Shown: positions 2,646 to 54,048, counted from the stretch's first letter. The stretch is DNA of 64,000 bases from an uncultured Clostridium sp. (GCA_930991035.1 CAKNRV010000002.1:19134-83133), one strand, 5' to 3'. A program made the numbers and translations. Notes: a model not told the origin generated them from the letters alone.

Positions 2646-5600
2646 TTATTTTATTTCCACATTAAATACTCCTCCATTTTCTTGCAAGATTATTTCTCCA
2701 TTTTCCATTTCTTTTCCATCCACATATACCTTTTTATTTTTGACATCCTTTTGCTTATTATTAAATACTTTTATATTATATATACTATTTCCATATCTAT
2801 ATTGAATGCTATATTCATTCCAATTATCTGGAATACTTGGCTCTATTTTTAGTATATTTCCTTGCTTGTTTAGTCCTAAAATATATCTTATTCCTGCTTC
2901 GTACATCCAGCTACTTGAACCTGTGTACCAAGTCCAACCACCACGTCCAGCTAATTCTCCGCCATAAATATCTGCTGCCATAACATAAGGTTCTACTTTA
3001 TATTTTTTAGCTTCGTCCTTTGTCCTTGAATGTTCTATTGGGTTTATCATTCTAAAATATTCTGCCCCTTTATCTCCAAATCCAAGCATTGCCTCTGCTA
3101 TTACTGCCCAAATTGCTCCGGTGCGTATACTGGCCTCCGTTCTCTCTTGTTCCTGGAATATATGCTTTAATATATCCTGGTTCTAGTTTGCTCTTTTCAA
3201 ATGGTGGGTCTAGTAATTTTATAATTCCTGCTTCTTTATCTACCAAATGATTTTCTAAACTGTTCATAGAAATATATTTTTTGTCGTTATCCCCTGCGCC
3301 AGATATGGTTGCCCAGCTTTGCGCTATGCTATCTATTCTACATTCTTCGTTTTGTATACTTCCGAAGCATATTTCCGTCATCCATAAATGCTCTTCTGTA
3401 CCATCTTCCATCCCAAGCATTTGTGTTTAATGCTTTCTTTAATTGTTCCATTATTTTTCTATATCTGCTTGCTCGTCTTTCTTCACTTTGTTTTGTTATT
3501 AAATCTAATCTTTCTGCATAATGCTCACAAATTTTGCTAAACTCGTCTAACACCTTGTATTGGAAAAATCCTAGCCATACGCTTTCTCCTTTGCCTTTAT
3601 TTCCCACTGTGCTAAATCCGTCATTCCAGTCTCCTGAACCTATCTTAGGTAATCCATTTTCGCCAAAGTTTAAAGATTTTTCTATTGCTCTAATGCAATG
3701 CTTGTATATGCTTTCTTTTTCTTCTGATGGAGGATATAAATCATACCTTTCGTCTATGCCTTCCTCTAAAGCTGCTCCTTTTACATATTCTGTTTCTTCG
3801 TCTAAAATGCTCCAATCTCCAGTAAATTTAATATATTCCGCCACCATATATGGAAGCCATAATAAGTCGTCCGAAAATCTGGTACGAATTCCTCTTCCAG
3901 TTTCCTCGTGCCACCAATGTTCTACGTCTCCCTCTATAAATTGGTGTTTACTATGCTTTATAATTTGATTTTTCAAAAATTCTGGAGATACATATTTTAG
4001 TCCAATACAATCTTGTAGTTGGTCTCTAAATCCATAAGCACCACCGGATTGATAATATCCGCTTCTTGCAAACATTCTTGAACAAAGTGTTTGATACAAA
4101 ATCCATCCATTAAGAAGTATATTCATAGATTCCACTGGAGTTTCTACTTTTATATTGCCCAATAATTTTTTCCAATATCTTTTTGTGTTCTCGTATTCGC
4201 TTACTGCATTATTTACATTTGCATATTTATATGCCGTGTCTTGCAAGTTTAATGAGTTTTCGTCTACTCCTAATGTAATTACTATATCTTTTCTTTCAAA
4301 TGCCTCTAGATTGATTTTAAACTCAATTGCTACCACTTCTTCTTTTCCTAAAGTATTTTCTCTGTCTAATTCTAATTTTCTAATTCCTTCTGGATTTTTT
4401 ATAGTGCCTTTTCCTATAAATGACTTTTTACTACCCGTATATGAAGTTATTTTTTCGCTACAAGCAATATATGCAATTGTTCTATTTTGCACAGGTTTTG
4501 TTTGGTTCCAAAGAGTTATCACATTGGTACTACTATCATACTTTAATTCTATATATCCATTTGATTTTATTTCGTCTTCGTCCAAAACTGGTTTTATATA
4601 ATACACTATTTTTATATTTTTCTTCTTTGCCATTTTATTTTCCAAATGCAATATTTGAACTTTGCAACTTTCCTTTTCTGGTACAAAAACCTTTAATTCT
4701 TGATATATTCCACCACTTGTGTGCGTGTATTTGCTATATCCAAATCCATATGCCACATAATAGTCATTGTCGTCAGGTGTAGGGTTTACAGAAACAGACC
4801 ATACTTTTTTCGTGTCTATATCTTCCATATACAATACCTCTGAAGGTACATCTGTTACCTGATTATTGTTCCAAGCAGTTATTCTATTTAGTCTGCTATT
4901 TTTGTACCAAGTATATCCTCCAAGTCCTTCTGTTACAACTGTTCCAAAATTTTCATTTGCCATAATATTAGACCATACAGTTGGGAGTTTTTCATCTTTG
5001 TTTACACGTATCAAATACTCAGTTCCATCTGCTGAAAATCCACCATATTCATTATAGTATTTTAGTTTATCTGCATCTAGTGCTTTTCTTTCTACTTCTT
5101 CTTCATAAAATTGCGGAATGTCTACTTCGTTTCCAATATCTTTTATACCATCTAAATACTCTTCCTCATAATCTTTTATTTGTCTTGCCACATTTCCCAA
5201 ATGAGCATTTATTAAGAGATTTGCTCTATATTCTAATATTCTTTTTGAATTTTTGTCTAAATTGTTTAGAACAAATATTCCTCCTTTTATATTTTGCATA
5301 TATGCCAAATTGCTATCTAATATTGCATTTATTACTTCTTCTTGCACATAATTTTCGTACGTCTTTTTTTCTTCATTTAAAATAACCAAATCTATTTTTA
5401 CATTTTTTACTCTTAAATATTCGTACGCTTTTATGCAATCTTTTACAACATAAATATCGCTAGAATCTTTTATTTTTACAAGAAGTATTGGTAAATCTCC
5501 AGAAATTCCGTACTTCCAAAGCTCAGATACATATGCTTCTTCTGGTATTTTTCCTTTATACATTAATAGTTTAAGTGGATTATTAAATATTAAATATTTA

Positions 5601-19446: not shown

Positions 19447-19605
19447 TATACTCTATCATTCCTTTTCCAAAATTTACCTATTTTGTCACAAAAATTATAT
19501 CACAAGCATTTTTGCTTGTAAACAAAATTTGCAAATTTCTTAAACGAAAGGTTGTAGGATTTTACTATTAATAGCTTATTCTAAAAGCAAAGCAATGTTA
19601 TTTTC

Positions 19606-19647
19606 AATTTTATGTTGGAGTGCTTAAGGTGGGAACCGACAAGTTAC
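19606..19647 (+). repeat. Copy of the 'TTTTATGTTGGAGYGCTTAAGGTGGGRACCGACAAGTT' motif (paralogue of the dGTPase leader element)
   Basis: About 42 nt nearly identical to 52631-52668. Confidence 0.6.
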
Positions 19648-19661
19648 AGTCTGTGGAAAAA

Positions 19662-19752
19662 TTTAAGAACTTGAACAAATAGGAGTGTCCCAAATGTTTA
19701 AGAACTTGAACAAATAGGAGTGTCCCAAATGTTCAAGTTCTTATTTTATTTT
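19662..19752 (+). terminator. Tandem 35-bp repeat (2 units) that closes into a long hairpin plus T-run; plus-strand-oriented intrinsic terminator
   Basis: The unit TTTAAGAACTTGAACAAATAGGAGTGTCCCAAATG occurs twice (19662-19696, 19697-19731). AAGAACTTGAAC (19700-11) pairs with GTTCAAGTTCTT (19731-42) and is followed by ATTTTATTTTAT. It is related to the element at 54049-54125. Confidence 0.55.
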
Positions 19753-51192: not shown

Positions 51193-51240
51193 CTGTGTGT
51201 TTTGCAAAACAAAGCACACAGAAACTAGTTTTTATATTAA
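51193..51240. terminator. Bidirectional terminator between convergent UDPGP and RelE-like genes
   Basis: CTGTGTGTTTTG-caaaa-CAAAGCACACAG 12-bp stem (one G-U pair) followed by a T-run. Confidence 0.5.
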
Positions 51241-51546
51241 GTTGTTAAAATCTCTTTTAGAATATATAATTTTTCTTAATTCCATTGCATTGTCTTTTAC
51301 AATATAAAAAATCGTGTAATTATTTACATATATTCTATAATATGCATTTTTTCTTTTTTTAATTTCTGAATATTTTTTGTAACTTTCTGGGCTTTCACTT
51401 CTTTTTTCTATTTCTCGAACTACTTTTTTATAAAAATTTTCTGCCGCAATTTTATTATTTAATTTATTTACAAAATATTTTAAGATATTATTAAATTGAT
51501 TAATAAAAGAAGAAGTATATCTAATTTCATATTTATGATTCTCCAT
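51232..51546 (-). CDS. Type II toxin, RelE/ParE superfamily
   Basis: 104 aa, basic, overlaps the upstream antitoxin gene by 14 bp. YYRIYVNNYTIFYIVKD is typical of the RelE/ParE fold. Confidence 0.55.
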   Translation of the reverse strand: MENHKYEIRYTSSFINQFNNILKYFVNKLNNKIAAENFYKKVVREIEKRSESPESYKKYSEIKKRKNAYYRIYVNNYTIFYIVKDNAMELRKIIYSKRDFNNLI

Positions 51547-51820
51547 CTATTATCCTCCTAGCCATTTCTTTCATTTCTTCGTGTGTATAGTATTTTGTGT
51601 TTGGATCTTCTGCCTCTCTATCTGCCTCGTCTAATGCTCTTTCAACATACTCGTTATATTCGGCATCACTCATTAGTTTCGAATATTTTTCTAAACTCAT
51701 TACTACCATTGAACCATATCCATTTTTTGTTAAATATACCGCTTCGTCTTCTTTTAAAACTAAATCCTCTATTTCTGGATATTTGTTTCTTAAATCTGAT
51801 ACTGGTCTAATATTAATCAT
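51533..51820 (-). CDS. Type II antitoxin, Phd/YefM family
   Basis: 95 aa with the N-terminal MINIRPVSDLRNKYPEI... pattern. Immediately upstream of, and overlapping, the toxin gene. Confidence 0.55.
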   Translation of the reverse strand: MINIRPVSDLRNKYPEIEDLVLKEDEAVYLTKNGYGSMVVMSLEKYSKLMSDAEYNEYVERALDEADREAEDPNTKYYTHEEMKEMARRIIDGES

Positions 51821-52476: not shown

Positions 52477-52608
52477 TTATTTATAATTTTTGTTCTGAAC
52501 TTTTGTTCGGTATTATTTTATATTATATTTTTTACTTTGTCAATACTTTTACAAAAATTTGTTTGGTTTTTTTGAAATTTGACGTTAAAATTCACAGCCG
52601 TACTTTTT

Positions 52609-52759
52609 AGCGAAGTACTGTATATTTTTATTTTATGTTGGAGCGCTTAAGGTGGGGACCGACAAGTTTACAAACTGTTAACGACACCTTAATGGAGTTA
52701 TACAGTTTGTACGCAGTTGGGGGCCGGAAACATAAAATAAAAATATACAGTACTTCGCT
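52609..52759 (+). repeat. 151-bp element bounded by perfect 29-bp terminal inverted repeats, containing interleaved stems; lies in the dGTPase 5' leader region
   Basis: The left IR AGCGAAGTACTGTATATTTTTATTTTATG (52609-37) is the exact reverse complement of the right IR (52731-59). Inside, CTTAAGGTG (52646-54) pairs with CACCTTAA (52685-92), and TACAAACTGT (52669-78) pairs with ACAGTTTGTA (52702-11); the two stems are interleaved. Confidence 0.6.
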
Positions 52760-52851
52760 TTTATAATAAGCTGTGAATAATAACAATTTGACTATTTAGA
52801 TATAAACTGTTACAATTATTCGTAATTAATAAGGAGGTAATAAAGTTAATA

Positions 52852-54048
52852 ATGAAAAATTCGTTTTATATGTTAGCTGCTAATCCAAATAATAATAAAT
52901 GGGAGCTTATGATTAAAAGAGAAGCTCCTTTATATTCAAGAAATAATGACCTTCGTTCTGATTTTGAGCGTGATTTTACTAGAATTATACATAGCAATGC
53001 TTACAGACGTTTAAAGCATAAGACTCAAGTGTTTTTTTCTCCTCAGAATGACCACATTTGTACTAGAATTGAGCACGTAAATCACGTTGAGTCTATTAGC
53101 TATACCATTGCGCATTATCTTGGACTAAATGAGGAGCTTACAAAGGCAATTGCAGTAGCACACGATTTAGGTCATAGTCCTTTTGGTCACAAGGGTGAAA
53201 AAGTCTTGAACTCTATTTGTGAAAGAGATTTAGGTAAATCTTTTTGGCACGAAAAAAATGGTTTGTTTTTTGTAGATAATGTAGAGCTTCTTGAAGATAG
53301 TGAAGGATGCAAGCAAAATCTAAATTTAACTTATGCTGTTAGAGATGGCATTATTTCTCATTGTGGAGAAATTGACGAAAATGTACTTAGACCTAGAGAG
53401 GAATTTATCGATTTAAGAACTTATGAATTTCCAAATCAATATGCTCCTTTTACTTGGGAAGGATGTATTGTAAAAATTTCTGATAAAATTTCTTATATTG
53501 GCAGAGATATTGAAGATGCCGTCACCTTGGGCATTTTAGATGCTCATTTGGATAAACTATATGATTTATTAGGTTACACAAGCGGAACTATAAATAATAC
53601 TGTTATTATTAATAAACTAATTTATGATTTATGTTCTAATTCTTCTCCAGAAAAAGGTTTATGTTTTTCTGATGAGGCTTTAGAGCTTATGAATAAAATA
53701 AAAGATTTTAATTATACATATATTTATCAATCAGATATTTTAAAGCCTTCTGAAAAGTATTTTTCTGTTGTTATAAATCAAATTTATGATGTATTAAAAG
53801 ATTGTTTTGATGGAGAAAATACTTTTGATAATTTAGATAATTTGAGGAAGTTTTATCCTAATTTAATTAATGGATTTACTGAATGGTTTTATAACTTTTC
53901 TGCAATTGGTGATAGAACTAATTTAAAAAATAGAATTTTATTTGACATACACAATCCAAATGATTTTTATTTTGCCATTGTTCTATATATATCTGGTATG
54001 ACTGATAAGTTTGCAATGGATATGTTTAATGAGATTATTGGGTATTAG
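52852..54048 (+). CDS. HD-domain dGTP triphosphohydrolase-like protein
   Basis: HD motif AHDLGHSPFGH with the dGTPase-like length and layout. Confidence 0.8.
   Translation: MKNSFYMLAANPNNNKWELMIKREAPLYSRNNDLRSDFERDFTRIIHSNAYRRLKHKTQVFFSPQNDHICTRIEHVNHVESISYTIAHYLGLNEELTKAIAVAHDLGHSPFGHKGEKVLNSICERDLGKSFWHEKNGLFFVDNVELLEDSEGCKQNLNLTYAVRDGIISHCGEIDENVLRPREEFIDLRTYEFPNQYAPFTWEGCIVKISDKISYIGRDIEDAVTLGILDAHLDKLYDLLGYTSGTINNTVIINKLIYDLCSNSSPEKGLCFSDEALELMNKIKDFNYTYIYQSDILKPSEKYFSVVINQIYDVLKDCFDGENTFDNLDNLRKFYPNLINGFTEWFYNFSAIGDRTNLKNRILFDIHNPNDFYFAIVLYISGMTDKFAMDMFNEIIGY

Follow-up and report, generated by a model that had tools for sequence, protein, structure and literature searches.

A non-coding repeat upstream of a dGTPase-like gene of an uncultured Clostridium: very probably a recently inserted MITE, with an unusually conserved core

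The Correia elements of Neisseria, also named NEMIS or CREE, are abundant intergenic MITEs of 100-155 bp which contain internal functional sites, and co-transcription of their long inverted repeats gives rise to hairpin RNAs. They duplicate TA, their ends are conserved over 26 bp, and they are known only from Neisseria. The REP, BIME, ERIC and REPIN repeats of proteobacteria are intergenic palindromes, often located just past stop codons and co-transcribed, whose effect on mRNA can be stabilising or destabilising; the enzymes which move REPINs are RAYTs. None of these four kinds of repeats is known to be flanked by target-site duplications, and neither target-site duplications nor terminal inverted repeats are known from IS200/IS605 elements and REPINs. 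The interior of a MITE is normally free to drift. Prokaryotic MITEs are defined as elements of less than 500 bp with terminal inverted repeats of 4-30 bp, which lie in AT-rich intergenic regions and form stable stem-loops, and flanking direct repeats are seen in the younger copies (PMC10969869). QMITE2 of Coxiella burnetii has direct repeats of 7-9 bp, terminal inverted repeats of 23-29 bp and a core of 113-145 bp (PMC10969869).

The element described here lies in a stretch of 64,000 nucleotides from an uncultured Clostridium sp., which is called the window in the following. It is very probably a recently inserted non-coding MITE, belonging to a family which is apparently undescribed and of a kind which is well known. 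Its size, the lack of a transposase gene, the shared termini, the duplication of fixed length, the empty site and the dispersed copies are those of a MITE. Like QMITE2 and other prokaryotic MITEs it is about 200 bp long, non-coding, bordered by terminal inverted repeats and 8-bp duplications, located in AT-rich intergenic DNA and present in many copies, and a transcript or single strand of it would form one very stable stem-loop. In contrast to typical MITEs, however, the parent insertion sequence of the family was not found in the window and 879 kb of loci, and the interior is not drifting: a long covarying helix surrounds a core which is near-invariant across the 20 species-level genomes among the matches listed. 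The same interior is combined with at least three GTAAC-ended terminal variants. With the Correia elements the family shares its abundance, the intergenic MITE nature and the long inverted repeats, but there is no sequence similarity and the duplication comprises 8 bp instead of TA. It differs from the REP, BIME, ERIC and REPIN repeats in having terminal inverted repeats, duplications of 8 bp and an empty site. The riboswitches and attenuators of Rfam resemble it in that covarying helices enclose unpaired nucleotides which are conserved; unlike these, the present element is tied to no gene family, is absent from orthologous leaders and fits no Rfam model.

The initial annotation had reported an element of 151 bp with a perfect inverted repeat of 29 bp. 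The repeat is indeed perfect and slightly longer, since the two arms of 31 nt are 100% complementary with 89 nt between them. The 151-bp hairpin exists, but it is not the whole element. It is enclosed by outer terminal inverted repeats of 15 nt, which are 87% complementary (13 of the 15 positions match in the window copy) and which had been missed together with the duplication, and the complete unit therefore comprises 201 bp (52584-52784). A perfect 8-bp direct repeat abuts both ends of this unit. Terminal inverted repeats and a flanking duplication around 201 bp represent the anatomy of a MITE. All features are listed in Table 1.

Table 1. Features of the element, of its insertion site and of a second family copy in the window.
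Feature	Position	Strand	Basis
Target-site duplication, left copy, AATTTGAC	52576..52583		exact 8-nt direct repeat
Left terminal inverted repeat GTTAAAATTCACAGC; family consensus GTTACAATTCACAG	52584..52598		repeat search
P1 5' arm, 31 nt, perfectly paired in window copy	52609..52639		repeat search
Core 5' loop: GGAGCG, CTTAAGGTGGGGACCGACAAG, TT; conserved	52640..52668	+	alignment of copies
Hairpin P2, stem 52669-78/52702-11, variable apical loop	52669..52711		repeat search, pairing across copies
Core 3' loop CGCAGTTGGGGGCCGGA; conserved	52712..52728	+	68-copy alignment
P1 3' arm	52729..52759		repeat search
Right terminal inverted repeat GCTGTGAATAATAAC	52770..52784		repeat search
Target-site duplication, right copy, AATTTGAC	52785..52792		exact direct repeat
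Sigma-70-type promoter match for dGTPase, TTGACT-17-TACAAT with TG; outside element	52788..52816	+	consensus match, 10/12 positions
Promoter match of divergent YgjP-like gene, TTGACA-17-TAAAAT; context only	52515..52543	-	consensus match
Second, truncated family copy: degenerate left terminus, left P1 arm, 5' core loop, long-variant P2 5' strand; right half missing	19561..19657	+	

The sequence of the P1 arm has no further site in the 64-kb window beyond the two arms, and shuffled sequences gave no match. The RNA fold reaches -68.8 kcal/mol on the plus strand (z = -9.7 against dinucleotide shuffles) and -60.6 kcal/mol on the minus strand (z = -10.6). Two inner stems and a G-rich segment had been noted before, and all are found in the window copy: TTAAGGTG/CACCTTAA at 52647-54/52685-92, TACAAACTGT/ACAGTTTGTA, which is the stem of P2, and the segment CGCAGTTGGGGGCCGG. 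In addition G52645 pairs with C52724 as the closing pair of the core. The inverted repeat, the fold and the inner stems together are far beyond chance expectation.

The 201-bp unit has no coding capacity. An ORF of 43 amino acids at 52635-52766 was considered as a small protein and was rejected because its frame differs between copies. The lengths of the P2 loop differ by 10-11 nt between copies, which are not multiples of three, and a conserved reading frame is therefore absent. A terminator was considered as well and discarded, since in neither orientation is the hairpin consistently followed by a T-run.

Downstream of the element the ORF 52852-54048 encodes an HD-domain protein (Pfam HD and a faint HD_assoc match) and is dGTPase-like; the 151-bp part of the element ends about 92 nt upstream of its start codon. 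The divergent neighbour is a YgjP-like gene, an assignment which rests on syntenic orthologous loci. An empty site was identified in L121, a metagenomic contig whose encoded dGTPase (P0001) is 99% identical to the window protein. This strain lacks the element and contains a single target copy, AAGTTGAC, followed by TATTTAG. The junction reads GAAAGTTGAC/TATTTAG and in its wider context TTTTTTGAAAGTTGAC/TATTTAGGGATAAACTGTTACAAT. The window aligns colinearly with L121 once 52584-52784 and one copy of AATTTGAC are removed, and the empty site is a precise one. Of the two readings which the initial annotation had offered, that of a recently active MITE-like insertion is the one which is supported. 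Copies of the element are absent from all six loci with YgjP-like/HD-domain synteny (L116-L121, protein identity 77-99%), so that these six orthologous dGTPase leaders contain none. In the five loci besides L121, which share the neighbourhood of UDPGP, YgjP-like and HD-domain genes and encode dGTPases that are 77-80% identical, neither the core nor the profile gave a match.

The element had been placed in the dGTPase leader. The best promoter match of this gene lies downstream of 52784, and the element is for that reason probably outside the leader. The -35 of this match overlaps the right copy of the target-site duplication, and the match is also present in the empty-site strain (L121 192-220). 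Judged by these consensus matches, the element likely sits between two divergent promoters and outside both likely transcripts.

Other differences between these loci concern regions outside the element. Relative to window position 52829/52830, L121 contains about 44 extra nt (L121:234-277, TCGATTTTAATTTTTTGTATTGGCTTTTATAAAAAGATATCTAT), which lie past the promoter match of the dGTPase gene and ahead of its ribosome-binding site. On the minus strand of the window two overlapping ORFs of 95 and 104 amino acids (51232-51820) are located between the UDPGP-like and the YgjP-like gene. They are absent from L116-L120, where the YgjP-like gene directly adjoins UDPGP. Their layout is that of a toxin-antitoxin pair, and they are possibly another insertion.

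Related gut Clostridia contain hundreds of copies of the family to which the window element belongs. With the core pattern CTTAAGGTGGGRACCGACAAG at least 115 stretches were found in a scan of one genome per species. Among the matches listed, all belong to uncultured Clostridia or Clostridium MAGs, and they represent 20 species-level MAGs with up to 20 stretches per MAG; one of these MAGs originates from roe-deer rumen. With a profile of 99 copies, nhmmer gave 134 matches in 879 kb, with up to three per locus of 5-8 kb. Full copies are intergenic in 120 of 123 cases, meaning that they do not overlap an ORF of at least 100 amino acids, and the genes beside them are mutually unrelated (SAM synthetase, two-component systems, glucan phosphorylase and others).

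Copies with both termini are 191-267 bp long. The GTTAC-type consensus GTTACAATTCACAG is found at both ends in 29 copies, among which seven are flanked by perfect 8-bp duplications, four by duplications with one mismatch and three by duplications with two. Shifted controls gave no identical pair and one pair with a single mismatch out of 261. The duplicated 8-mers differ from copy to copy (TACTATTT, AAGCATTA, ATATTTTG, TAATATAT and others). The terminal variants GTTAC-TATTTAAAG and GTTAC-TGGATAATGG keep the terminal GTTAC, and perfect 8-bp duplications also flank two variants of this type, in L059 and L034. Differences in occupancy are also seen elsewhere in the window: at about 62.6-63.05 kb the window contains no copy, whereas the syntenic region of L058 does, and L100 contains a full copy in an intergenic region in which the window keeps only a fragment. 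Many copies at unrelated intergenic sites with duplications is the very outcome which the initial annotation had named as speaking for a plain MITE and against a regulator.

Abundant, hairpin-rich repeats may also be mobilised as single strands by HUH enzymes, and the element, recognised as a DNA hairpin, could then be a REPIN moved by a RAYT or an IS200/IS605-derived PATE. The biased orientation in a type of genome where most genes follow replication, and the extra sequence which hairpin apices recurrently hold, would suit such an origin as well. However, the variable sequence of the 8-bp duplications and the conserved GTTAC...GTAAC termini contradict it, and we consider a HUH-dependent repeat very unlikely.

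Regarding their genomic setting, the MITE copies are found between co-directional genes in 83 cases, between divergent genes in 15 and between convergent genes in 8. They start at a median of 31 nt past the upstream stop codon and about 100 nt ahead of the next start. As most copies follow so closely after the preceding stop they are probably co-transcribed, and the perfect hairpin would then act on mRNA ends, an effect which has been reported for other palindromic repeats. Within the 83 co-directional pairs the orientation is biased by 62:21, the 62 being those in which the genes are on the strand opposite to the G-rich motif strand. Transcription, the direction of replication or selection may be behind this bias.

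An autonomous insertion sequence with the same termini was found neither in the window nor in the 879 kb of loci. We looked for a transposase between pairs of termini which are 0.3-4 kb apart and have matching flanks as well as among the ORFs beside solo termini, and obtained host genes only. Multi-copy families among 485 ORFs likewise consist of host genes and include no transposase candidate. The solo termini adjoin ordinary host genes, for example in L050 an ORF which resembles a replicative helicase. As these loci yielded no such transposase, the element is assumed to be mobilised in trans. A transposase encoded elsewhere, presumably of the DDE type, would recognise the GTTAC...GTAAC ends, the target AATTTGAC would be opened by cuts staggered by 8 bp and the element joined in, and repair of the gaps would then duplicate the 8-bp target. 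In the window the insertion would have landed between the divergent promoters of the YgjP-like and the HD-domain (dGTPase-like) gene. Through the duplication the -35 box of the dGTPase promoter match was restored, so that the gene is probably unharmed; the insertion would be neutral.

Because the same termini are also found with a different cargo, at least two kinds of MITE appear to be moved by the transposase. In L006 (1953-2052) termini of the sequence GTTACAATTCACGG and a perfect 8-bp duplication, AGCATGTA, surround an unrelated interior of 100 bp. An interior in common with this cargo is seen in L048 from 7034 onward. Some family members are located inside other outer palindromes (TTTGCAAAAGGGGACGGGC type), for which no duplication was demonstrated.

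Outside these genomes the family was searched for in several collections. BLASTN in distant mode with a region of 292 bp gave no match in the phage and plasmid collections, and the 21-mer core has no match in viral contigs. The 14-mers GTTACAATTCACAG and AGGTGGGGACCGAC occur in 120 and 82 stretches of viral contigs, respectively, none of which is element-like by nhmmer, and these were dismissed as chance matches. A metagenome scan for a base other than T after the core yielded only two more copies, which are members of the same AT-rich family. A full-text literature search for the core sequence, with either strand written as DNA or RNA, found no occurrence.

Copies in different states of decay are also present. 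The truncated second copy of the window (Table 1) is matched by nhmmer at 19579-19648 (E = 5e-13) and by the long variant L112 at 19562-19663 with 87% identity, and the core 5' loop recurs in it at 19617-43 with two mismatches. In L055 the copy at 2380-2580 has intact termini and arms and no core, and forms a near-perfect palindrome; in another species the same site, beside the orthologous gene, is occupied by a full copy (L105, 181-391). One-sided deletions are seen in L055 (1085-1195), L106 (5595-5710) and L108 (5667-5729). Core-less palindromes exist in L055, L079, L098 and L108. A core which is separately mobile and inserts into the centres of palindromes was considered and rejected, as neither a duplication nor defined ends of such a unit were found, and the outer termini do not change among copies which share their arms. 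The simpler reading of the core-less palindromes is that they are deletion derivatives.

To the 68 distinct copies which were aligned the helices P1 and P2 are common, and 87.5% of the cells of both helices together are paired. Out of 41 pairs 33 change on both sides (474 cells), although the copies are related by descent and such counts therefore overstate the number of independent events; none of 500 shuffles reaches the observed value. Pairing falls to 41-59% when the 3' partners are shifted by 1-3 columns. P2 alone is 97% paired and contains swaps from CG to AU and from CG to GC.

The covariation seen in P1 and P2 does not extend to the other inner stem. The interleaved stems had been interpreted as a pseudoknot or as alternatives which exclude each other, and in this form they would allow the dGTPase 5' leader to sense dNTPs or a second messenger as a riboswitch or attenuator. 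The interleaved pairing CTTAAGGTG/CACCTTAA shows no two-sided change and only 61-67% paired cells in the 68 copies, and 14-19 of them, depending on the column, lack its partner loop. This stem is an accident of the P2 loop of the window copy. A very stable fold, two interleaved stems in the window copy and a position about 92 nt upstream of the start codon speak for a riboswitch. Against this, the element is lacking in L121, whose dGTPase is 99% identical, as well as in five leaders of orthologues with the same neighbourhood, it lies upstream of the best promoter match, and its hundreds of copies are found by unrelated genes, mostly just past the 3' end of a gene on the opposite strand. Rfam gives no match either: with Rfam 15 the whole window at gathering scores yields only tRNAs, nothing relevant appears around the element at E values up to 10, and four other copies, including the divergent L103, yield nothing at E values up to 1. 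We regard a riboswitch or attenuator dedicated to the dGTPase as extremely improbable.

The MITE as such, however, leaves two observations unexplained, namely the near-invariant core with its covarying P1 and P2 helices and the 62:21 orientation bias. The conserved parts of the core are asymmetric and consist of GGAGYG, CTTAAGGTGGGGACCGACAAG, and CGCAGTTGGGGG followed by C. The invariance of CTTAAGGTGGGGACCGACAAG is partly due to construction since the 21-mer was the search pattern. GGAGYG and the 3' core loop (CGCAGTTGGGGGCCGGA/CGCAGTTGGGGG) are conserved as well, although they are outside of that pattern. The closing pair, formed by the base before CTTAAGG and the base after the G-run, is of Watson-Crick type in 91 of 102 copies (70 G-C, 11 U-A and 10 A-U). 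The core loops are kept in the copy from the rumen MAG, L103, in which P1 and P2 are unrelated in sequence to those of the gut copies. RNAalifold indicates no convincing extra pairing within the core on either strand. A conserved asymmetric core within covarying helices is unusual for the interior of a MITE. Either the element itself may depend on the long covarying helix and the invariant core as folded DNA or RNA, or hosts may make use of them, and this would be the reason why both are kept.

It is possible, and we suggest it tentatively, that the MITE is the vehicle of a functional, strand-specific structured payload which comprises the 151 bp of P1, the conserved loops and P2. Such a payload could be an RNA motif for protein binding or processing, or a single-stranded DNA structure for the mobilising enzyme or for the replication and repair machinery, and it would add to the MITE reading. 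The conservation of GGAGYG, CTTAAGGTGGGGACCGACAAG and CGCAGTTGGGGG across the 20 MAGs among the matches listed, with compensated changes in P1 and P2, is consistent with it, as are the three Watson-Crick types of the closing pair and the loops of the rumen copy between unrelated helices. Comparisons of orthologous copies point in the same direction for L082/L071, where the module is 96-97% identical and the flanks are 74-78% identical, and for L001/L107 (97-100% and 67-73%, respectively). The opposite trend is seen for L106/L012, in which the module is less conserved (88-97%; core 90%, arms 88% and 97%) than the surrounding outer 30 nt (97-100%). Wobble pairs in P2 favour the G-rich strand, with G:U exceeding A:C by 18 to 3. 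In the long arms, however, there is no strand bias (146 versus 119, p = 0.11), and the strand favoured by the wobble pairs is opposite to that of most neighbouring genes. The orientation bias of 62:21 speaks for a payload. The search pattern accounts for part of the invariance of the 21-mer, kinship among the copies inflates all counts, and there is neither an Rfam match nor a conserved promoter. Taken together, the signals from conservation, wobble pairs and orientation give no clear RNA or DNA function.

It is rather doubtful whether the interior of about 150 bp represents an undescribed structured nucleic-acid module which was spread by the MITE in gut and rumen Clostridia and is kept by selection. 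A module of this kind may be an RNA which is co-transcribed in 3' regions and bound or cut by a host protein, or it may be a folded single-stranded DNA signal for mobilisation. The latter would explain arms which are perfectly paired and yet differ between copies, and copies which are swapped or flipped in place.

Copies which may be of that kind were identified in L079 and L037, which are 95% identical over the region. There the module of P1 and core is found in opposite orientation at two sites (L079:2940-3200 and 5127-5335, L037:3180-3420 and 5359-5567), and in L015/L065 the core is likewise present in opposite orientations at the same site. Together with the non-random orientation relative to genes this might indicate an inverton, in which the 31-bp inverted repeats serve as recombination sites for flipping the core and altering the expression of the neighbouring genes. 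The arms of the flipped copies in L079 and L037, however, are only 81% identical, which is unlike a simple flip, and opposite orientations were seen only between different genomes. No invertase gene is located beside the copies examined, the arm sequences vary between copies and thus offer no common recombinase site, and target-site duplications and empty sites are signs of transposition. We therefore think that an inverton is quite unlikely. The differing arms in L079 and L037 point to replacement or re-insertion, and together with the opposite orientations they suggest one of these or flipping rather than simple descent.

A regulatory RNA dedicated to the dGTPase is a false lead, and the finding as it was originally posed is an ordinary one. 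The MITE insertion in the window is recent, looks neutral and can be used as a strain marker. In the poorly known AT-rich uncultured gut Clostridia the family is very abundant, and anyone scanning these genomes for riboswitches, small RNAs or terminators will be misled by repeats of this kind. The asymmetric core and its covarying helices are a reasonable target for studies of element recognition or host use and deserve a modest follow-up.

Further repeats were observed in and around the copies. The apex of P2 is a recurrent place of extra sequence. One type of insert is about 50 nt long and contains a 13-bp hairpin of its own (CTTGAAGAAAAAA...), and a second type is rich in GAGATGTGAGAT. Extra sequence at the P2 apex is found in the long variants L018, L023, L035, L040, L049, L056, L074, L080, L083, L091, L104 and L112, and also in L025 and L026. 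In some copies the module of P1 and core sits within a GGGGACGGGC palindrome, for which no duplication was seen. Other families of long palindromic repeats in these MAGs are of the TTTGCAAAAGGGGACGGGC and GGGACAGG types and have arms of up to 46 bp; palindromes are located at L079:688-764, L092:5476-5574, L083:4161-4234, L036:798-843 and L039:234-286 and 4995-5047. In the window the truncated second copy runs into a 35-nt unit which is repeated 2.2 times (19662-19737, 97% matches; the region extends to 19757). This repeat forms a terminator-like hairpin downstream of a gene for a surface protein of 1645 amino acids.
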